Positions 4,086-14,931 of a stretch of 28,019 bases of DNA are shown here, piece after piece. The stretch spans positions 1 to 28,019 of the forward strand of contig JBBTQX010000006.1 of the NCBI GenBank assembly GCA_038065455.1, read 5' to 3'. The notes below the pieces were generated by a model. That model made no database searches and was not told where the DNA came from. It saw only the letters and a program-made list of their open reading frames with translations. Every line of letters starts with the position of its first letter. Within the stretch, counting starts at the first letter, position 1. The translations under genes and the position numbers were made by a program. Source of the DNA: Patescibacteria group bacterium (GTDB lineage Bacteria > Patescibacteriota > Minisyncoccia > UBA6257 > GWB1-50-10).

Positions 4086-4511
4086 TCAGTCCGTGATTTC
4101 AATTCCCATATTTTTTGCGGTGCCGGCGATGATTTTCATAGCGGCGTCGATGTCGTTCGCGTTCAAATCCGCCATCTTCCGTTCGGCGATTTTTCTTAAG
4201 TCGTCTTTAGTTACTTTGCCCACCACGGTCTTGCCGGGCGTGCCGGAAGCCTTTTCCAACCCCGCGGCTTTTTTGAGGAGTGCGGAGGCCGGCGGAGTCT
4301 TCAATTTGAAATCAAATGTGCGGTCCTCGTAGACGGTGATTTCCGCCGGAATGACGTCACCACCCATATCCTTGGTCGCCTCGTTGAATTGCTGGCAGAA
4401 CTGCTGGATGTTCACGCCGTGCTGACCCAAAGCGGGGCCCACGGGCGGAGCCGGATTCGCCGCGCCGGCCTTCATCTGTAATTTTAATCTTGCTTTTATA
4501 GGTTTTGCCAT
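4086..4511 (-). CDS. rplK: 50S ribosomal protein L11
   Basis: [40 protein letters not shown]. Confidence 0.98.
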
Positions 4512-4518
4512 ATTTTTA

Positions 4519-4646
4519 CCAGGCAGTGAAAATGCGATTGCAAGCTACGCTTGAATCTGCTATTTTATTCGACTCTATTGATTTTTTATTGTATATTTTC
4601 ATATTTTTGGTTTCACCTTAAATTTAATCGCATTTCTACTGCCTGG
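4519..4646. mobile_element. 128-bp MITE-like element (family B) inserted at the nusG stop codon
   Basis: Terminal IRs CCAGGCAGTGAAAATGCGATT / AATCGCATTTCTACTGCCTGG (19 of 21 pairing). TTA direct repeat at 4516-4518 and 4647-4649, the latter being the nusG TAA. Confidence 0.8.
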
Positions 4647-6537: not shown

Positions 6538-6548
6538 TTGAATTTAAC

Positions 6549-6571
6549 TTAATCGCATTTCTACTGCCTGG
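6549..6571. repeat. Solo terminal repeat of the family B element abutting the rpsR stop codon
   Basis: TTAATCGCATTTCTACTGCCTGG is identical (23 of 23) to 4624-4646 and directly adjacent to the rpsR TAG (6572-6574). Confidence 0.8.
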
Positions 6572-6781
6572 CTAGCGCCTGACGAAAGGCAGAAGACCCA
6601 TCGTTCGGGACTGCTTTATGGCTTTGGCGAGGCGCCGCTGATGCTTGGCGCAGATGCCGGTGTGGCGCGGGTCGATGATTTTTCCCTGACTCGAAACGAA
6701 GCGGCGCAAAAGCTCCACTTCCTGGTAATCTATTTCCTTGGAATTCTGGGAACAAAAAAGGCACTGTTTGGCTGATTTCAT
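6572..6781 (-). CDS. rpsR: 30S ribosomal protein S18
   Basis: CLFC, IDY, LRRFVSSQGKI, TGICAKHQRRLAKAIK, GLLPF; follows rpsF-ssb. Confidence 0.97.
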   Translation of the reverse strand: MKSAKQCLFCSQNSKEIDYQEVELLRRFVSSQGKIIDPRHTGICAKHQRRLAKAIKQSRTMGLLPFVRR

Positions 6782-6904
6782 CCCGTTTAGAGACAGGATG
6801 CGCTTCTTGAGCGCATCCGTGATGCATTAATTGACTCGACTTTATTGGATTTTATTGATTGTTCGGTAATCATATTGTTCATAAGTTTGGTGTCTCTAAC
6901 GGGA
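6781..6904. mobile_element. 124-bp MITE-like element (family A, copy 1) at the rpsR start codon
   Basis: TCCCGTTTAGAGACA...TGTCTCTAACGGGA terminal IRs. TTCA direct repeat at 6777-6780 and 6905-6908. Homologous to 7387-7527 and 11634-11756. Confidence 0.85.
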
Positions 6905-6916
6905 TTCATGTTTGTT

Positions 6917-7387
6917 TTAAAATGGGATTTCTTCCGGCTTAATATCGCTTTCGTCGATATTTATCTCCGGCAATTCTTCTTCCCTCGAATCCTCCGCCTT
7001 GGGTTGGGATGGAGCGCTCGGGCGCTGTTCCCCGCCGAATTGGCCGCCGCTTCCGCCCGAAGATTTGGGACCGAATTGAATATGATCGGCAATAATTTCG
7101 GTTGTGCGCCGCGTCTGGCCCTGCTTATCCTGCCACTCTCTGGTTTGAAGCCGCCCTTCCACCATGGCTAAGCCGCCCTTCTTGAGATATTGGCTGGCGA
7201 TTTCCGCTTGTCGGCCCCAAACCACGATATTGTGGAATTCCGCTTTCTGCTGCTTCTGGCCGGACTTGTCCGTATAAAAACTATTGGTCGCAATGCCGAA
7301 GGAAGAAACCGGTTGGCCGGCCGTCGTCTGCCGGAGTTCCGGATCGCGCGTCAGATTGCCTAAGATGAAAACTTTATTGAGGTTCAT
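6917..7387 (-). CDS. ssb: Single-stranded DNA-binding protein
   Basis: NKVFILGNLTRDPELR, VEGRLQTREW, acidic C-terminus EEIPF. Confidence 0.98.
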   Translation of the reverse strand: MNLNKVFILGNLTRDPELRQTTAGQPVSSFGIATNSFYTDKSGQKQQKAEFHNIVVWGRQAEIASQYLKKGGLAMVEGRLQTREWQDKQGQTRRTTEIIADHIQFGPKSSGGSGGQFGGEQRPSAPSQPKAEDSREEELPEINIDESDIKPEEIPF

Positions 7388-7527
7388 CCCGTTAGAGGCA
7401 GGATACGCTCCTGCCTGCGCAGGCAGGCAAAAAGCGCATCCGTGATAGATTAATTGATTCGACTTTATCGGATTTCATTGATTGTTTGATGAATATATTT
7501 TTCATAATGTTTATGCCTCTAACGGGA
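7387..7527. mobile_element. 141-bp MITE-like element (family A, copy 2) at the ssb start codon, with a nested 18-bp palindrome
   Basis: TCCCGTTAGAGGCA...TGCCTCTAACGGGA IRs. TTCA direct repeat at 7383-7386 and 7528-7531. Confidence 0.85.
7410..7427. repeat. Perfect 18-bp palindrome CCTGCCTGCGCAGGCAGG nested in family A copy 2
   Basis: Absent from copies 1 and 3; accounts exactly for the 141 vs 123 bp length difference. Confidence 0.85.
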
Positions 7528-7535
7528 TTCATTTT

Positions 7536-8001: not shown

Positions 8002-8036
8002 CCCCCACACCTAATTGGGATTGGATGGTGTGGGGG
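8002..8036. mobile_element. 35-bp hairpin insertion (family C) at the rpoC 3' end / rpsF -35 box
   Basis: CCCCCACACC-N15-GGTGTGGGGG flanked by a TCAA direct repeat (7998-8001 and 8037-8040). Confidence 0.65.
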
Positions 8037-11000
8037 TCAATTTTGACCTCAACTCCATAAGCTTTTCCTGGTCGACTCCCCGAAGGCCGGTGCCCACCGG
8101 AATAAGTTTTCCGATAATGACATTTTCTTTGAGGCCTCTCAAAACATCCACTTTATGCTGGACGGAAGCATCCACCAAAACGCGCGCAGTTTCCTGGAAA
8201 GAGGCCGCCGAGAGGAAACTTTCCGTTGTCAGGGACACCCGAGTTACGCCAAAAACCCTTTGGACAGCTCGCGCCGGCTGTTTCTTGGATTTTTTCGCCG
8301 CGCGGTTTACGGTCACAAACTTCGGCTTTTCTATTACTTCGCCCACCATGAAATCCGTATCGCCCGCGTCTTTCACGGCTACGCGCGAAAGCATTTGTTT
8401 CACGATTATCTCGATGTGCTTGTCGTTGATGGCGGCGCCTTCCGGCACATAAACCCGCTGGATTTCGTTTATGACGTAATGGATAAAAGCGTCGGTGCCC
8501 CGAAGGACGAGTATTTCGCGAAGATCCAAAGGACCTTCGAAAAGCTGTTCACCCTTCTTGACCTTGTCTCCGATTTTGACGAAAATCGTCGTATTCAAAG
8601 GCACGAGATATTCGAAGATATCCGCTTCCGTTTTTGTTTTCCGGCGCGTCACTTTTGCCGCTTTTTTGGGGACGGTTTCGCGGATTTTGATAACGAAGGA
8701 AAGTCCCCGTTCTTCGATATCCGAAACAATGCCGTCGGCCCGACAAAGGGCCGCCTTGCCTTTAGGCGGACGCGCTTCGAAAATTTCCTCCACCCTCGGC
8801 AAACCATGGGTGATGTCCGCGCCCGCGACGCCTCCCACATGGAAAGTTCGGAGTGTTAGCTGGGTGCCCGGCTCGCCGATAGACTGGGCGGCAACGATGC
8901 CGACGGCCTCGCCGAGTTCTACGAGCCTATTCCGGCTCAAATCCAAGCCATAGCAGGCGGCGCAAACGCCGTAGACCGTCTTGCAAGTGATGGGCGAACG
9001 AACCTTAATCGACAGTAAATCGGAATCCTGGATTTTCTTGGCCGCTTCGCGGCTCACGATTTCCCCGGCTCGCGCGACGACTTTTCTATCCACTCTTATG
9101 TCATCCAAGCTCACCCGGGAGTAAAGCCTCTCGCCGAAAGAATATCCGAAAGCGTCGCCTTCGCTCCTCACAATTTCCATTCCCTCCTTGGAACCGCAGT
9201 CTTTTTCCCTGACGAAAATTTCCTGAGCCACGTCAACCAAACGCCGGGTCAGATATCCGGCCGAGGCGGTCTTCAAAGCCGTGTCGGTCGAACCTTTGCG
9301 GGCGCCGTGCGTCGTGATGAAATATTCCAATATTTTCAAACCTTCTTTATAGGAAGAATGGGCGGGCAATTCCATCGTTTCTCCGCTCGTGTCCTGCACC
9401 AAGCCCTTCATACCCATCATCTGAACCATCTGGTTCCAGCTACCGCGGGCTTTGGAATTGATGACGGTCAAAATCGGATTGCCATCCTTGAAAGCTTTGG
9501 GAAGCGCCGCCGCCACTTTTTCCCGCGCTTCGGTCCAGATGGTCGCGATTTTGTTTTTCTTTTCGTCATTGGTCAATAAGCCATCTTCATATTGAGCTTC
9601 AATTAAGAGGGCTTCCTTGTCACTCGCCGCGATAATGGCTTCCTTTTCCACCGGAGTGATGGTATCGCCGATTCCCCAGGAAACGGATGAGACAGTCGCA
9701 TATTTGAATCCGTAATCCTTAATTTTGTCGATGTAATTCCGGCTCTCCTCTATCGTGTAATTTTCGATGATGCGGCCGACGAGATTCGAAAGTTTTTTCT
9801 TGTCCAAATCCTCGTTTACAAAATCAAAGTCCGGCGGCATAATGCCGTTGAAAATCAGCCGGCCGTAGGAAGTTTCGATGATTCCCTCTTTCGTGCCCGC
9901 CTTCACGCGCGCGTTCAAATCAATCGCGCCTTGCTCGTAAGCCATGGCGGCTTCGTTTATGTCCGAGAAAATTTTGCCTTCGCCCCTCATACCCTCCCGG
10001 ATATGAGTCAGGAAATAAATGCCCAAAACCATATCTTGCGTCGGTGAAACGATCGGCTCGCCATTCGCGGGCTTCAAGAGATTCCCTCCCGCGTCCATCA
10101 AGGTGGCGGCTTCCACCTGCGCCTCGGCCGTAAGCGGCAAATGCACGGCCATCTGGTCGCCGTCGAAGTCCGCGTTGAAAGCGGCGCAAACCAAAGGCGG
10201 AATCCGAATGGCCATATCTTCAATCAAGACCGGCTTGAAAGCCTGGATGCCCAAGCGGTGCAATGTCGGCGCGCGGTTCAAAAGCACGCGGCGATTTGCG
10301 ATGACCTCTTCGAGAATAGCCCAGATTTCGGGCGGCCCCTGCTCGATAAGCCGGTTTGCCTGTTTGATATTGAAGGCCAGTCCCCGCTCAATTATCTTGC
10401 TGATGACGAAAGGCCGGAAAAGTTCCAAAGCCAAATGCTTCGGCAAGCCGCATTCGTTCAATTTCAATTCTGGGCCGACGACAATAACCGAACGGCCGGA
10501 GTAATCCACGCGCTTGCCGAGAAGATTCTGCCGAAAACGGCCCTGTTTCCCTTTCAACATATCGGCCAAAGACCGAAGCGGCCGGCGCTTGCTCGAAAGG
10601 AGCTGGCTGCCGAGGCGGGCGGTATTGTCTATCAAAGCGTCCACCGCTTCTTGAAGCATTCGCTTTTCGTTCACGATGATAACTTCGGGGGACTTGAGCT
10701 CCAAAAGTTTTTTCAGGCGGTTGTTGCGGTTGATGACGCGGCTGTAGAGGTCGTTCAAATCGGCCGTTGCATAATGGCCGCCGTCCAAAGCCACCATCGG
10801 ACGCAAGTCCGGCGGAAGAATCGGCAAGGTCGTCATAATGCTCCATTCGGGCCGGATGCCGGACTTTATCATCAGGCGGGCGAGGCGCAAACGCATCAAT
10901 ATCCGCTTCTGGCGGTTGGCATCCTGCACCTGTTCCAATTCCTTGGTCAATTCTTTCACGGTCGCCTTAAGATCTATTTTTTCCAAAATATGGCGGATGG

Positions 11001-11634
11001 CGCCGGCGCCCTGGTCGGCTTCGAAAACATCGCCGAATCTTTCGGAAAGGCGGAAATATTCGTCCTGTGTGAGAATGAGACCGGGCTTCAAAACCGAAAT
11101 GACTTCTTTCACCTGCTCCTGTTTTTCCTTGAGGTCTTTCTCATCCATCACCTTCTCCGATTTCAGCGATTTGAATTCTTTTTCGAGTTCCGCGAGCGCC
11201 CGCTTGCGATTGTCTTCATTTATGGCCGTCACAATATATGAAGCATAGTAGATAACCTTCTCGAGTTTCGGCACGGAAATATTCAAAAGCAGGCTCAAGC
11301 GGGAAGGCACCGTTTTCAAAAACCAGATGTGCGCCACCGGCGATGCCAGCGTGATATGGCCCATCCGTTCGCGGCGGACCGCCGCGCGCGTCACTTCGAC
11401 GCCGCACTTCTCGCAAACGACGCCCTTATAGCGGATTTTCTTGTACTTGCCGCAATAGCATTCGTAATCTTTGGTCGGTCCGAAAATTCTTTCGGAAAAC
11501 AAGCCATCCTTTTCCGGCCGCTGGGTGCGGTAATTCAAAGTCTCGGGCTTGATTACTTCGCCGTGCGACCAGGAGAGAATCTCTTCGGGGCTCGCCAGAC
11601 TGATGGATATGGATTTGAGATCGTGGTTATTCAT
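8011..11634 (-). CDS. rpoC: DNA-directed RNA polymerase subunit beta'
   Basis: NADFDGDQM catalytic motif, GKQGRFRQNLLGKRVDYSGRSVIV, SIGEPGTQLT, GLKENVIIG. Confidence 0.99.
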   Translation of the reverse strand: MNNHDLKSISISLASPEEILSWSHGEVIKPETLNYRTQRPEKDGLFSERIFGPTKDYECYCGKYKKIRYKGVVCEKCGVEVTRAAVRRERMGHITLASPVAHIWFLKTVPSRLSLLLNISVPKLEKVIYYASYIVTAINEDNRKRALAELEKEFKSLKSEKVMDEKDLKEKQEQVKEVISVLKPGLILTQDEYFRLSERFGDVFEADQGAGAIRHILEKIDLKATVKELTKELEQVQDANRQKRILMRLRLARLMIKSGIRPEWSIMTTLPILPPDLRPMVALDGGHYATADLNDLYSRVINRNNRLKKLLELKSPEVIIVNEKRMLQEAVDALIDNTARLGSQLLSSKRRPLRSLADMLKGKQGRFRQNLLGKRVDYSGRSVIVVGPELKLNECGLPKHLALELFRPFVISKIIERGLAFNIKQANRLIEQGPPEIWAILEEVIANRRVLLNRAPTLHRLGIQAFKPVLIEDMAIRIPPLVCAAFNADFDGDQMAVHLPLTAEAQVEAATLMDAGGNLLKPANGEPIVSPTQDMVLGIYFLTHIREGMRGEGKIFSDINEAAMAYEQGAIDLNARVKAGTKEGIIETSYGRLIFNGIMPPDFDFVNEDLDKKKLSNLVGRIIENYTIEESRNYIDKIKDYGFKYATVSSVSWGIGDTITPVEKEAIIAASDKEALLIEAQYEDGLLTNDEKKNKIATIWTEAREKVAAALPKAFKDGNPILTVINSKARGSWNQMVQMMGMKGLVQDTSGETMELPAHSSYKEGLKILEYFITTHGARKGSTDTALKTASAGYLTRRLVDVAQEIFVREKDCGSKEGMEIVRSEGDAFGYSFGERLYSRVSLDDIRVDRKVVARAGEIVSREAAKKIQDSDLLSIKVRSPITCKTVYGVCAACYGLDLSRNRLVELGEAVGIVAAQSIGEPGTQLTLRTFHVGGVAGADITHGLPRVEEIFEARPPKGKAALCRADGIVSDIEERGLSFVIKIRETVPKKAAKVTRRKTKTEADIFEYLVPLNTTIFVKIGDKVKKGEQLFEGPLDLREILVLRGTDAFIHYVINEIQRVYVPEGAAINDKHIEIIVKQMLSRVAVKDAGDTDFMVGEVIEKPKFVTVNRAAKKSKKQPARAVQRVFGVTRVSLTTESFLSAASFQETARVLVDASVQHKVDVLRGLKENVIIGKLIPVGTGLRGVDQEKLMELRSKLTPTPSNPN

Positions 11635-11756
11635 CCCGTTAGAGACAGGATGCGCTCAAAAAGCGCATCCGTGATGGATTAGTTAACTCGACTTTATTGG
11701 ATTTCATTGATTGTTTGGTAATCATATTTTTCATAAGGCTTATGTCTCTAACGGGA
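11634..11756. mobile_element. 123-bp MITE-like element (family A, copy 3) at the rpoC start codon
   Basis: TCCCGTTAGAGACA...TGTCTCTAACGGGA IRs. TTCA direct repeat at 11630-11633 and 11757-11760. Confidence 0.85.
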
Positions 11757-11757
11757 T

Positions 11758-14700
11758 TCATTCTTCCTTTTCTTCATTATCCTCCCGACTGTCTTCATAT
11801 TCGTAATTCACATTCAAACCCAAGGATTTCAATTCGGAGACCAATACATTGAAGGACGCGGGGATGTTCGGCTTCTTGATTTCCTGTCCGCGGATAATCG
11901 ATTCGAAAGCCGCTGAGCGTCCGAGCACATCATCCGATTTTATCGTGAGCATCTCCTGGAGCGTGTGCGCCGCGCCGTAGCCCTCGAGAGCCCACACTTC
12001 CATCTCGCCGAAGCGTTGGCCGCCCAATTGGGCTTTGCCGCCCAAGGGCTGCTGGGTAATGAGCGAGTAGGGTCCGGTCGAGCGGACGTGCATCTTGTCC
12101 TCCACCAAATGGTTCAGTTTCATTATGTACATATAACCGACGGTCACCGGCTCTTTAAATGCCAACCCATCCTGGCCGTTCCAAACCGTCATCTTGCCGG
12201 TCTCGGAAAATCCCGCGGCTTTGAGTTCGTTCCGGATGTCTTCCTCGCTCGGGCCCACGAAATTCGGCACCACGGCCCGATAGCCGAGTTTGTTGGCCGC
12301 GAGGCCCAAATGGGTTTCCAATATCTGGCCCAGATTCATACGGCTTGCGACACCCAGCGGATTCAAAACTATGTCCACCGGCGTGCCGTCTTCGAGATAC
12401 GGCATGCTCTCCATTTTGCGAATCTGGGAAATGACGCCTTTGTTGCCGTAGCGGCCGGCCAGCTTATCGCCCGCCCGTATCTTGCGCAACTGAGCCACCT
12501 CAATTTGAATTTTTGTAATAATACCCGGCTCGAGCTTATCGCCCTTATCGCGCGAGAATATCTTGATGCCGATGATGCGGCCCTGCTTGCCGTGGGGCAT
12601 CGTGAGCGAGGAATCTTTCACATCGCGGGCCTTCTCGCCGAAAATAGCGCGAAGTAATCTTTCTTCGGAGGTCAGTTCCGATTCGCCTTTGGGCGAAATC
12701 TTTCCGACCAGAATATCGTTGGCCCGCACTTCGGCGCCAATGCGAACAATGCCGTCCGCGTCCAAGTTCCTCAGTTTTTCTTCGGCCACGTTCGGAATAT
12801 CGGGCGTCATCATCTCCGGTCCGAGTTTGGTATCGCGCACCAGGCAAGTGAAAGTTTCGATGTAAATGGAGGTGAAGAAATCATCCCGCGCCACCCGTTC
12901 GGAAATAACGATGGCATCCTCGAAGTTGCCGCCCTGCCAGGGCAGGAAGGCCACGAGCAAGTTCCGACCCAAGGCCAGAACGCCGTCCTTGGTCGCGGGG
13001 CCGTCGGCCAGGACCGTGCCCGGCTTCACTTTGTCTCCCACCGAAACGGCCGGCCGTTGAGTCATGCAGGTGGACTGGTTGGAACGCTTGAATTTGTAGA
13101 GATTGAAAGTTTTATTGCCGTCGGAAGTTTTCACGGTGACGGCGCGTCCGTCCGCTTCCGTCACGATGCCGCTCACGTCCGAGATAATCACCTGGCCGGA
13201 ATCCTGGGCGGCTTTTTCCTCCTCGCCGGTCGATACCAGCGGCGCTTCGGGATTCAAAGTCGGCGTGGCTTGCCTCTGCATGTTCGAACCCATCAAGACG
13301 CGGTTCGCATCGTTGTGCTCCAAAAACGGAATAAGCGACGTGGAAACGCTGAAGAGCTGGTTCGGAGAAATGTCGATGAGATCGACTTCTTCGCGCCGGC
13401 AGATGCCCGGCACGCCTTTGTTCCTCGCCGAAATAATCGGTTCGGCGATAAATCCTTTTTCGTCGGTCTTCACATCCGCCTGGGCGATGTTGTATTTCTG
13501 CTCGTTAATCGCGTCGAGCCAAATCGTGTCTTTGGTGACCGTACCATTCTTGATTTTGAAATAAGGCGTTTCCAAAAAACCGAAATCGTTCACGCGAGTG
13601 TAGTTCGCCAAATAGTTCACGAGGCCGATGTTCGTGCCTTCGGGAGTGGCAATCGGACAAATACGCCCATAATAGGACGGATGCACGTCGCGGACTTCGA
13701 AACCCGCGCGCTCGCGCGTGAGACCGCCCGGGCCCATCGCCGATATTCTGCGTTTATGTTCGAGTTCGGCAAGCGGATTAACCTGGTCCATAAATTGCGA
13801 AAGCTGGGAAGCGGCGAAAAAGTCACGCACGACTGAGGTTAAAAGTTTGTAGTTGATGAGCTGGGCCGGCTGAAGTGTTTTCCTTTCCAAAGTGGACATT
13901 CTATCTTGGATGCCGCGCTTCAGGCGGGCGAAACCTACCCGCAAACGGGCCTGAACCAACTCGCCTACGGAACGAATCCTGCGATTGCCCAAATGGTCGA
14001 TATCATCCGGTTCGGCGTTCAGATTATTGTTCAGGCGAATCATCTCCGAAATAGCGGCGATAAGGTCTTCCAAATCCAGGAGCCGGCTGTCTTTCTTTCC
14101 AAGCTCCAGACGCTGATTGAATTTATAGCGGCCAACCGGGCTTATATCATAGCGGTCAAAGCGCGAAAACATCGGCTCAACCAGAAGCCGAGCGTTCTCG
14201 ACAGTCGCGAGATCTCCCGGCCGGAGGCGGCGATAAAGTTCAACAAAGGATTCGTCCGCATTCTTCGCATCATCCTTTTTGAGGGTTGCTTGGATGTACT
14301 TTATGGCGCCGGTATCCACCTTGGCGAAGGCCTTCAAAATCTCGTCGTTATCCTTCAGCCCGAAAACGCGGAGCAGCTGGGTGACGGGCGCTTTGCGGCG
14401 GCGGTCGATTTTCACGCCCAGAAATCCGTCAGCTTCGGTATCCAACTCCACCCAAGCGCCGCGATTCGGAATTATTTTCCCGCCAAAAAGCTTCCGGCCG
14501 CGGAACATATTGGCCGTGAAATAAATTCCCGGCGAACGGATAATCTGCGAGATCACCACCCGTTCCACGCCGTTCACGATGAAAGTGCCCCGCGCGGTCA
14601 TCAGCGGGAAATCACCGAGATAAACTTCCTGAACTTTGGATTGCTTGGTTTCCCGGCTTACCAGTTTCACGTTCACTCGAAGCGGCGCCTCGAACGTCTG

Positions 14701-14931
14701 GTCCTTCTCCGTTGATTTAGCTTCGCTGTATTTCGGCTGGTCGAATTTGTAATCCAAAAAGCTCAATTCCAATTCTTTACCGGTGTGATCCTTAATCGGA
14801 GAAATCTCTTCGAACAATTCTCGGATTCCTTTTTCCAAAAACCACTTGTAGGAATTGATTTGAGTCTCCACCAAATTCAAAGGAGCGAAGGTCGGACCCT
14901 GGTAAGACGAAAATATTTTTGTTTTGCGCAT
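11758..14931 (-). CDS. rpoB: DNA-directed RNA polymerase subunit beta
   Basis: DIDHLGNRRIR, SQLSQFMDQ, GSNMQRQA, GDKLAGRYGNKG, GGQRFGEMEVWALE. Confidence 0.99.
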   Translation of the reverse strand: MRKTKIFSSYQGPTFAPLNLVETQINSYKWFLEKGIRELFEEISPIKDHTGKELELSFLDYKFDQPKYSEAKSTEKDQTFEAPLRVNVKLVSRETKQSKVQEVYLGDFPLMTARGTFIVNGVERVVISQIIRSPGIYFTANMFRGRKLFGGKIIPNRGAWVELDTEADGFLGVKIDRRRKAPVTQLLRVFGLKDNDEILKAFAKVDTGAIKYIQATLKKDDAKNADESFVELYRRLRPGDLATVENARLLVEPMFSRFDRYDISPVGRYKFNQRLELGKKDSRLLDLEDLIAAISEMIRLNNNLNAEPDDIDHLGNRRIRSVGELVQARLRVGFARLKRGIQDRMSTLERKTLQPAQLINYKLLTSVVRDFFAASQLSQFMDQVNPLAELEHKRRISAMGPGGLTRERAGFEVRDVHPSYYGRICPIATPEGTNIGLVNYLANYTRVNDFGFLETPYFKIKNGTVTKDTIWLDAINEQKYNIAQADVKTDEKGFIAEPIISARNKGVPGICRREEVDLIDISPNQLFSVSTSLIPFLEHNDANRVLMGSNMQRQATPTLNPEAPLVSTGEEEKAAQDSGQVIISDVSGIVTEADGRAVTVKTSDGNKTFNLYKFKRSNQSTCMTQRPAVSVGDKVKPGTVLADGPATKDGVLALGRNLLVAFLPWQGGNFEDAIVISERVARDDFFTSIYIETFTCLVRDTKLGPEMMTPDIPNVAEEKLRNLDADGIVRIGAEVRANDILVGKISPKGESELTSEERLLRAIFGEKARDVKDSSLTMPHGKQGRIIGIKIFSRDKGDKLEPGIITKIQIEVAQLRKIRAGDKLAGRYGNKGVISQIRKMESMPYLEDGTPVDIVLNPLGVASRMNLGQILETHLGLAANKLGYRAVVPNFVGPSEEDIRNELKAAGFSETGKMTVWNGQDGLAFKEPVTVGYMYIMKLNHLVEDKMHVRSTGPYSLITQQPLGGKAQLGGQRFGEMEVWALEGYGAAHTLQEMLTIKSDDVLGRSAAFESIIRGQEIKKPNIPASFNVLVSELKSLGLNVNYEYEDSREDNEEKEE

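Follow-up and report, generated by a model that had tools for sequence, protein, structure and literature searches.

A start-codon-duplicating mobile element in Patescibacteria and the putative translation relay carried by its miniature copies

In a Patescibacteria group bacterium, an inverted-repeat element of 121 nt separates rpoB from rpoC and abuts the rpoC start codon, which raises the question of how a gene directly behind such an element is translated. The window analysed here is the 28,019-nt contig JBBTQX010000006.1 (assembly GCA_038065455.1, positions 1 to 28,019), a whole contig of a 654-kb, 10-contig genome labelled G000. It holds three copies of the element, all on the minus strand, with rpsR (copy 1), ssb (copy 2) and rpoC (copy 3) as host genes, and each copy carries a short open reading frame (mini-ORF) that ends next to the host ATG. 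The best-supported reading, to which we give an even chance, is that this mini-ORF acts as a termination-reinitiation translation relay; we infer both that it is translated and that the host gene depends on it. The parts of the three copies are as follows.

11635 to 11755, minus strand: core of copy 3, 121 nt, between rpoB and rpoC, from left repeat CCCGTTAGAGAC to right repeat GTCTCTAACGGG
11639 to 11761, minus strand: mini-ORF of copy 3, 40 codons plus TAA by translation, with in-frame internal ATGs at 11734 and 11725
11648 to 11670, minus strand: sub-terminal hairpin of copy 3, predicted by folding, with a 9-10 bp stem and a U-rich loop, 1 nt from the right repeat
11630 to 11634, minus strand: right-hand ATGAA of the 5-bp target duplication, providing the start codon of rpoC; its left counterpart is at 11757-11761
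7388 to 7526, minus strand: core of copy 2, 139 nt, between rpsF and ssb, recognised by sequence and repeat pair
7392 to 7532, minus strand: mini-ORF of copy 2, 46 codons plus TAA by translation
7410 to 7427, minus strand: palindrome of 18 nt inside the loop of the copy 2 hairpin; the G000 copy at C4:4932, of another subfamily, has the same insert
6782 to 6903, minus strand: core of copy 1, 122 nt, between ssb and rpsR, with one extra A in the right repeat
6787 to 6909, minus strand: mini-ORF of copy 1, 40 codons plus TAA by translation

The order along the operons is rpoB, copy 3, rpoC and rpsF, copy 2, ssb, copy 1, rpsR. In all three copies the mini-ORF begins with an ATG six bases ahead of the repeat beginning CCCGTTAGAG and ends with a TAA within the right inverted repeat TCTAACGGG, which leaves 4 nt (copies 2 and 3) or 5 nt (copy 1) to the host ATG. 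At copy 3, the left ATG (11761-11759) overlaps the rpoB stop codon TGA as ATGA. A preliminary description of this DNA had reported mini-ORFs at 11761-11639, 7532-7392 and 6909-6787, with 40, 46 and 40 codons and a TAA in the terminal inverted repeat 4-5 nt before the duplicated ATG; reading and translating the minus strand reproduced all of this in each copy. The 18-nt insertion of copy 2, said to be in frame, proved to be so and is the palindrome in the hairpin loop at 7410-7427, and the 1-bp insertion of copy 1 is harmless to the frame before the stop as claimed, the extra A lying 3' of the TAA. Since the three copies are 71-86% identical in pairwise comparison, they were counted as one lineage, and chance was judged on the wider family.

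The host genes and the gene upstream of copy 3 were identified by Pfam and the ORF table.

8011 to 11634, minus strand: rpoC, host gene 3' of copy 3
11758 to 14931, minus strand: rpoB, 5' of copy 3, whose stop codon overlaps the left ATG of that copy
6917 to 7387, minus strand: ssb, host gene 3' of copy 2
6572 to 6781, minus strand: rpsR (ribosomal protein S18), host gene 3' of copy 1

A profile search of the G000 contigs, built from the three window copies, returned 17 short copies plus two long ones. A mismatch-tolerant search for repeat pairs returned 22 repeat-bounded elements, namely 17 of 109-139 nt, two of 278 nt and three of 66-72 nt, and the ATG of a long ORF follows directly after the element in 19 of them. 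The core of copy 3 recurs with 100% identity at C4:68603-68723 of G000. The terminal inverted repeats (TIRs) of 12-13 bp read (T)CCCGTTAGARAY on the left and RTYTCTAACGGG(A) on the right; positions 1-9 are invariant, and positions 10 and 12 co-vary, being Watson-Crick paired in 134/139 and 132/139 copies, respectively. Selection at the RNA level could not be distinguished from selection at the DNA level by the asymmetry of GU and AC pairs at these two positions (GU 1+3, AC 4+4). The repeats with a following ATG were found in 14 of 41 related genomes, where a reversed-pattern control gave 0 matches, and, among the matches listed, in Lloyd-, Wolfe-, Kaiser-, Yanofsky-, Nomura- and Zambryskibacteria, Kazan and other metagenome-assembled genomes of Patescibacteria. 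Related genomes are labelled G001-G004 and G007 below, individual element or gene loci carry L numbers, and X7 and X14 are public sequencing runs. Two samples were compared: an order-level sample of 55 oriented copies (17 from G000 and 38 from relatives) and a wide Patescibacteria sample of 87 copies among the matches listed (at least 120 stretches), a scope that applies to every wide-sample count given here.

Comparison of occupied and empty sites shows that the element is mobile. In the closest relative, G004 (91-93% identical), the rpoB/rpoC and rpsF/ssb junctions are single, uninterrupted and element-free. The rpsF/ssb site of copy 2 is empty in G002 as well, and both G002 and G001 are without the ssb copy. 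At the ssb/rpsR site of copy 1, an element is present in G002 (L044) and none in G001, G003 or G004. In addition, a 981-nt DNA contig from run X7 joins position 7387 to 7532 with 0 mismatches and keeps copy 1; the skipped positions 7388-7531 correspond to the 139-nt core of copy 2 plus exactly 5 bp. The flanks of the copies agree with such a duplication. The base 5' of the left repeat is T in 57/57 copies, the two flanks match each other in 45/47 copies at position 4 and in 44/47 at position 5, and flank variants other than A are mirrored on the other side in 6/6 cases at position 4 and 4/4 at position 5. Flank pairs ATGAG, ATGGA and ATGCG in the wide sample repeat the pattern. The element thus inserts at ATGNN, mostly ATGAA, with a 5-bp target duplication, which leaves one start codon upstream of the element and regenerates one for the host gene. 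G000 contains 2201 ATGAA sites, and in the crude gene calls (727 genes) ATGAA opens about 172 and ATGA 318 of the 727; given these numbers, the location at gene starts may reflect the survival of harmless insertions as much as targeting. A right repeat followed by a base other than A was found in only six elements of the 41 genomes, all with one extra C/G pair, and these provide no set of copies away from start codons.

Several features of individual copies are recorded beside this general pattern. The left duplicate is not ATG in 10/57 copies, T replacing G in eight of these, and in two copies the left flank reads ATTCAT, so that it complements the right ATGAAT in inverted order and lengthens the repeat to 18 bp; such non-ATG duplicates may stem from decay, from selection against an upstream ATG or from another insertion outcome. 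The three elements of 66-72 nt in G000 (C4:18656-18721, C4:39414-39483 and C8:43685-43756) have the same repeats around a single GC-rich hairpin, and two of the three have no ATG after them. The left repeat holds stop codons in both frames other than the ATG frame, and five upstream ORFs (G000 C2:82138 and C2:26388; L033, L034 and L041) end at its TAG with the C-terminus ...ESR, so that the insertion has replaced the last residues of the upstream protein. In G003 the rpoC start codon, at the rpoB/rpoC junction (L012), is occupied by a truncated element of another subfamily, about 45 nt with the left repeat only. Its duplicated ATG opens an ORF of 18 codons, closed by a TGA that overlaps the rpoC ATG; the element either hit this site independently or is an old insertion in decay. 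The 18-nt palindrome CCTGCCTGCGCAGGCAGG lies in the hairpin loops of two subfamilies (window 7410-7427; G000 C4:4794-4932), a similar palindrome is found near the left end of a G007 copy (L034), and it may be a still smaller mobile palindrome.

The origin of the short copies is suggested by the long ones. The two 278-nt copies of G000 are identical at 277/278 positions and encode an 87-residue protein with a GIY-YIG nuclease domain (PF01541, E = 5.4e-16, 59.1 bits against a cut-off of 22.6), the sole gene of the 275-278-nt cassette. Homologues of this protein are present in 37 of the 41 related genomes, often in several copies, and at 10 of the 12 closest homologue loci from other genomes the same repeats lie 275-278 nt apart. 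In all ten of these same-repeat cassettes the nuclease ORF crosses the right repeat, and its TGA stop overlaps the ATG downstream (ATGA). Within the full cassette the nuclease ORF starts at +14 to +21. L064, L066 and L067 have no in-frame ATG ahead of the catalytic motif other than the duplicate outside the left repeat, and the protein must therefore start on the captured host start codon; in L073 the duplicated and an internal ATG are both in frame. By their sequences, the short elements appear to be non-autonomous derivatives of this cassette, that is, transposable elements of the miniature inverted-repeat type (MITEs) of about 109-139 nt, and they display the TIRs, the target-site duplication, the dispersed copies and the insertion polymorphism of such elements. 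More distant small GIY-YIG genes of the relatives (L075, L076, L079, L080, L081 and L082) each have their own, different inverted repeats, L079 again with ATG on both flanks, and their sequences suggest a large superfamily of GIY-YIG cassettes with co-evolving ends. To our knowledge, a GIY-YIG nuclease is not used by any known insertion sequence family.

Does the mini-ORF occur more often than expected by chance? A relay ORF was defined as an ATG-started ORF of at least 18 codons whose stop is either the repeat TAA or a TGA that overlaps the host ATG, with the reverse complements of the copies and composition-matched shuffles as controls. Such an ORF is present in 47 of the 55 order-level copies (17/17 in G000, 30/38 in relatives), compared with 14/55 reverse complements and 5.3-8.1 copies in shuffles, and in 42/87 copies of the wide sample, compared with 7/87 reverse complements and 8.9 in shuffles. 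An open frame of this type is expected in about 10% of the composition-matched shuffles, and the relay ORF is enriched about five-fold over shuffles and reverse complements; the copies share ancestry, so these counts are not independent trials; the subfamilies, however, come from many genera and have interiors that are unalignable with one another. An analysis of frames anchored at the left ATG was rejected, and frames were then counted from the right end as the TAA frame, the TGA-overlap frame and the frame that would fuse to the host protein. The median open run from the right end is 32, 17 and 8 codons in these three frames, and interior stops number 3, 25 and 49 in G000 and 24, 43 and 99 in the relatives. 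A stop lies next to the host start (TAA-CGGG-ATG or ATGA) in 47/55 and 42/87 copies and in 10/10 full cassettes. An internal ATG is found in most copies between +21 and +41, level with the nuclease start of the full cassette or just 3' of it; this ATG opens an ORF of 23-31 codons to the repeat TAA, including in most of the relatives' copies that have an early stop downstream of the left ATG. The stop of the first ORF lies at most 6 nt from the relay ATG in 19/47 copies, with an ATGA overlap in 7; these counts are not used as evidence.

The peptide itself does not appear to be what is kept. The ratio of non-synonymous to synonymous changes (pN/pS) is 0.69-0.76 in the ORF frame and 0.40-0.89 in two control frames, and the ORF-frame values equal to those of out-of-frame controls argue that selection does not act on the amino acid sequence. 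The preliminary description had noted mostly non-synonymous substitutions between copies, which these values bear out, and had concluded that the open frame rather than the peptide seems to matter. The absence of amino acid constraint and the enrichment of the right-ending ORF speak for this conclusion; the continuity from the upstream ATG that it included does not hold family-wide. A functional micro-peptide, such as a regulator of the nuclease or of transposition, is accordingly a highly improbable explanation: the ORF is widespread and its N-terminal MNPVR and C-terminal residues are conserved, but these residues are encoded by the repeats and the hairpin, which places the constraint on the DNA, and elsewhere pN/pS equals that of the controls, while lengths and end frames vary. 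A regulatory leader peptide or upstream ORF with a conserved peptide or stalling motif was rejected on the same comparison with the control frames and on the lack of a match in Rfam.

Several observations weigh against a relay. The preliminary description had the ORF from the upstream ATG uninterrupted across each element, and in the family at large this could not be upheld: the frame reaches the repeat stop without a break in 10 of the 14 short G000 copies, in 8 of 32 copies of the relatives and in 24 of 69 of the wide sample, an early stop following the left ATG in 24/32 and 45/69 copies. In L044 of G002, which occupies the same ssb/rpsR site as copy 1, this frame stops at codon 13. A depletion of stops specific to this frame, compared with other frames, was not observed among the relatives, where 8, 4 and 7 of 32 copies are stop-free in the three left-anchored frames. 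Nor does operon context matter here. Among copies in tight operons, as judged by the gap to the upstream ORF, the frame is open in 8 and prematurely closed in 3 copies of G000 and in 4 and 11 copies of the relatives; for the other copies the numbers are 2 and 1 in G000 and 4 and 13 in the relatives, with no difference between the two groups in the openness of the left-ATG frame. In-frame stops in operonic copies, which that description had named as evidence against its proposal, are thus frequent in the relatives (11 of 15 tight-operon copies). The left ATG is in phase with the relay ORF in 11/14 copies of G000, 9/24 of the relatives and 15/36 of the wide sample, where one third is expected, and the values near one third outside G000 argue against family-wide selection for continuity from the left ATG. 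The relay ORF itself is missing from 8/55 order-level and 45/87 wide-sample copies, and these copies still precede intact long ORFs, which indicates that host genes can be expressed without it. Two copies have no left ATG and yet precede essential-looking hosts, an FtsH-like ORF (G000 C4:38216) and ssb in G003 (L049). Within clusters, 3 stop-creating events compared with 5.7 expected gave no significant avoidance of stops, in a test of low power restricted to open copies of three clusters. Finally, the ORF descends in part from the 5' end of the nuclease gene and shares its 3' stem arm, so that some of its openness may be inherited.

The last point leads to the main rival, an inherited frame without function, which we regard as unlikely on balance but as the most serious of the alternatives. 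The mini-ORF would then be coding sequence left over from the GIY-YIG gene after internal deletion, the stops and the adjoining ATG would be fixed by the repeat and the target duplication, and the host gene would be translated through breathing of the stem or through its opening by the ribosome that finishes the upstream gene. The MITEs indeed retain the nuclease start position (ATG at about +18 to +21) and the 3' stem arm (AGCGC.TCC plus repeat), their hairpin corresponds to a long-range stem of the full element, and reverse-strand frames are often open in G000 (8, 1 and 8 of 17); the wide-sample copies that persist without the ORF and the non-significant stop avoidance within clusters point the same way. 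On the other hand, the interiors have diverged beyond alignment between subfamilies and show no amino acid constraint, yet the right-anchored ATG-ORF is about five times commoner than in controls in two independent samples. Moreover, most MITE ORFs end in the TAA frame and not in the TGA-overlap frame of the nuclease, and the same arrangement is seen in a second family whose repeats differ.

This second family is represented in the window by two features.

4519 to 4646, minus strand: second-family MITE with CCAGGCAGT... repeats, TAA on both sides, the stop codon of the upstream ORF being duplicated
6543 to 6574, window coordinates: second-family solo repeat

The repeats of the second family are CCAGGCAGTAGAAATGCGAT and ATCGCATTTTCACTGCCTGG, with 38 strand hits in G000, most elements being matched on both strands. 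Its members sit between the stop codon of one gene and the ATG of the next and are flanked by a duplicated TAA. In six copies an ATG-started ORF of 24-28 codons faces the next gene and ends exactly at the TAA, 1-9 nt before the next ATG; the window element at 4519-4646 carries an internal ORF of 28 codons, which the right TAA closes 4 nt ahead of the next ATG at 4511. A seventh copy has a 29-codon ORF ending 5 nt past the element end, and a 312-nt member (C2:77644-77955) contains a decayed GIY-YIG gene. The second family is an independent parallel with different repeats and the same layout.

Could translation of the ORF serve the transcript rather than re-initiation at the host gene? In 13 of the 17 G000 copies the upstream ORF overlaps the element or ends within 11 nt of it, and ribosomes on the mini-ORF could shield the insert of about 120 nt from Rho-type polarity or RNase within operons such as rpoBC and rpsF-ssb-rpsR. 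Such an anti-polarity role would fit this abundance in tight operons and the enrichment of an open frame without peptide constraint. It would not account for an ORF end beside the host ATG in either of two frames, nor for the frame that would fuse to the host protein, which is open from the left ATG in 0/55 order-level copies and 1/87 copies of the wide sample and open to the left end of the element in 0/55 copies, and we consider it improbable.

The structure of the transcribed element bears more directly on the host start codon. The predicted fold consists of a terminal stem of 14-15 bp that includes the A and the U of the host AUG, a coaxial hairpin of 9-10 bp and an unpaired A-rich interior. 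Minimum free energies are -43.3, -38.4 and -60.2 kcal/mol with z-scores of -5.3 to -8.0, and 0/200 shuffles fold as well. Of the wide-sample copies, 59 have the hairpin towards the host gene and 7 have it at the opposite end. With the A and the U of the AUG paired in the predicted stem, binding of the 30S subunit should be hindered. De novo initiation at the internal ATG, only 6-9 nt behind the terminal stem, should be hindered too, which counts with the observations against a relay listed above. The Shine-Dalgarno (SD) motif is absent from the CTCTAACGGG preceding the host ATG, as had been stated for the downstream genes, and G000 is SD-poor altogether: an SD-like motif, taken as a 4-mer at -18 to -6, occurs in 69 of the 727 crude genes. 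A simple pattern search for the 16S 3' end in G000 gave no match. The elements have no match in Rfam at E values up to 1 and the whole window has none at the gathering score, and a known ribozyme or riboswitch was ruled out on these grounds.

A fold of this stability might by itself make the insertion tolerable. The terminal stem would loop out the insert, so that the native leader adjoins the host AUG as a split ribosome-binding site, as is reported for phage T4 gene 38, and the ORF would be irrelevant. Besides the great stability of the stem and the co-variation of its arms (134/139 and 132/139 Watson-Crick), the G003 ssb copy agrees with this explanation, as it lacks a left ATG and has an SD-like GGGGG run immediately 5' of the stem. 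However, the stem pairs the A and the U of the host AUG, SD motifs are rarely used in the genome, and neither the ORF enrichment nor the 59-to-7 orientation bias of the hairpin is accounted for; tolerance through structure alone thus seems to us a remote prospect, on a par with protection from polarity.

We consider a termination-reinitiation relay the most likely explanation, and three points combine in its favour: the frame is retained with no constraint on the peptide, the predicted fold hides the host AUG, and the host is poor in SD motifs. In a full cassette, the nuclease ORF begins either on the captured upstream ATG or some 20 nt into the element, passes both repeats and terminates at the TGA overlapping the host ATG (ATGA). 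In a MITE, an ORF of 20-46 codons runs from the captured or an internal ATG to the repeat TAA 4 nt before the host ATG, or to an overlapping TGA. The stable stem and hairpin of the transcribed element would mask part of the host AUG, and ribosomes translating the mini-ORF would unwind the hairpin and the 3' stem arm, terminate beside the host AUG and re-initiate there. To the re-initiation proposed in the preliminary description, the stable fold over the AUG, the lack of an SD motif, the roughly five-fold enrichment of an ORF ending at the host ATG and the stop-start overlap in 10/10 cassettes lend support, and the part that relied on continuity from the left ATG (8/32 copies in relatives) is not borne out.

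Public groundwater metagenomes from 8 studies contain DNA of the window, and one run (X14) is an RNA library. With 0 mismatches, a 473-nt contig from this library spans copy 3 completely and extends 41 nt into rpoC, while parts of the window that lack RNA cover are uninformative. An unprocessed transcript would agree with such a contig, if weakly, and DNA carry-over or chimeric assembly are possible sources as well; beyond 11762 the X14 contigs diverge (three contigs, agreement 0.52), and a chimeric assembly is possible given that two copies of the element are identical.

At a larger scale, we tentatively propose, as a possibility rated somewhat below the relay itself, an undescribed class of bacterial mobile element. 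It would consist of a minimal GIY-YIG gene, framed by inverted repeats of 13 bp, and would integrate precisely on start codons (in the sister family on stop codons). By duplicating the codon it would borrow the host start for its own ORF, and it would return the ribosome to the host gene via a repeat-encoded stop 4 nt ahead of the regenerated ATG or overlapping it. Its MITEs would keep the relay frame because insertions without it are purged, and Patescibacteria with genomes of 0.6 Mb could in this way tolerate dozens of insertions in their most essential operons, such as rpoBC and those of ribosomal protein genes. If the relay is real, selfish DNA could colonise the start codons of essential, tight operons in streamlined genomes without killing its host, as the element would bring its own means of restoring translation. 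The parent would point to a GIY-YIG-driven type of transposon, a type that we do not know from any insertion sequence family. Annotation of genomes of the Candidate Phyla Radiation is affected too, since each genome will have dozens of loci where gene callers misplace the start or report a spurious gene of 40 codons. The compact junction of repeat, TAA, four nucleotides and ATG is also a ready test object for termination-reinitiation in SD-poor organisms.

A search of open-access papers and bioRxiv found no description of an element that duplicates start codons or of a GIY-YIG cassette flanked by inverted repeats, and there is a substantial chance that the parent GIY-YIG element represents a new class. 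Among known systems, fungal mitochondrial GIY-YIG ORFs, reportedly described by Paquin, Laforest and Lang in 1994, are said to insert in phase at the 3' end of a host gene and to bring a replacement C-terminus. They share with the present element a mobile ORF that uses host expression signals and damage that is offset by duplication of the interrupted gene end. Here, in contrast to the 3' end and the fusion to an organelle protein, the insertion is at the 5' end, involves the start codon only and creates no fusion, and the element has inverted repeats and MITEs.

Rickettsia palindromic elements (RPE), reportedly described by Ogata and colleagues in 2000, are another point of comparison. In the excerpted text of a 2024 review of prokaryotic MITEs (PMC10969869), RPE are small palindromic mobile elements with an ORF that persist inside expressed genes of a reduced genome, and in both the ORF and the survival in a reduced genome the present element resembles them. 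According to the same excerpt RPE fuse in frame into the host protein, whereas here the ORF stops just before the host ATG and leaves the host protein unchanged. RPE-like in-frame fusion was therefore rejected on the fusion-frame counts: read from the left ATG, none of the 55 copies and a single one of the 87 would fuse.

Free-standing homing endonuclease genes of T4-like phages, for example mobE after nrdA with UAAUGA, overlap the upstream stop with their start, which, in the excerpts of PMC2988022, suggests translational coupling. As portrayed there, they also have in common with the present element a selfish nuclease between conserved genes, stop-start overlap and RNA hairpins at the junction. 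In those excerpts they spread by double-strand-break repair into a cognate site and have no inverted repeats, target duplication or miniatures, whereas the element described here is found at many unrelated genes and would also be coupled at its downstream junction, restoring the host gene. A free-standing GIY-YIG homing endonuclease was rejected as an explanation for this reason: the domain is present, but the sites are many and unrelated, and there are inverted repeats and a 5-bp duplication.

With bacterial MITEs (Correia/CREE, RUP, ERIC) the element shares a length of about 120 nt, TIRs, target-site duplication, many copies, presence/absence polymorphism, a strong RNA fold and a longer relative with the same repeats. 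It differs in that the start codon itself is the target (ATGNN duplicated), that a reading frame abutting the host ATG is retained and that the partner encodes a minimal GIY-YIG nuclease and not a DDE, HUH, serine or tyrosine transposase. A term search of the 2024 review (PMC10969869) gave no match for 'start codon'. Classical termination-reinitiation coupling, finally, takes place at ATGA or TAA-Nx-ATG junctions; PMC4538824, PMC7518266 and PMC7538156 are papers on this subject. The stop 4 nt before or overlapping the next start, the lack of an SD motif and a start structure that the upstream ribosome would have to open are common to both. In contrast to the classical case, the upstream frame is here carried by a mobile element and has no product under selection, and the junction is formed by the repeat and the target duplication.

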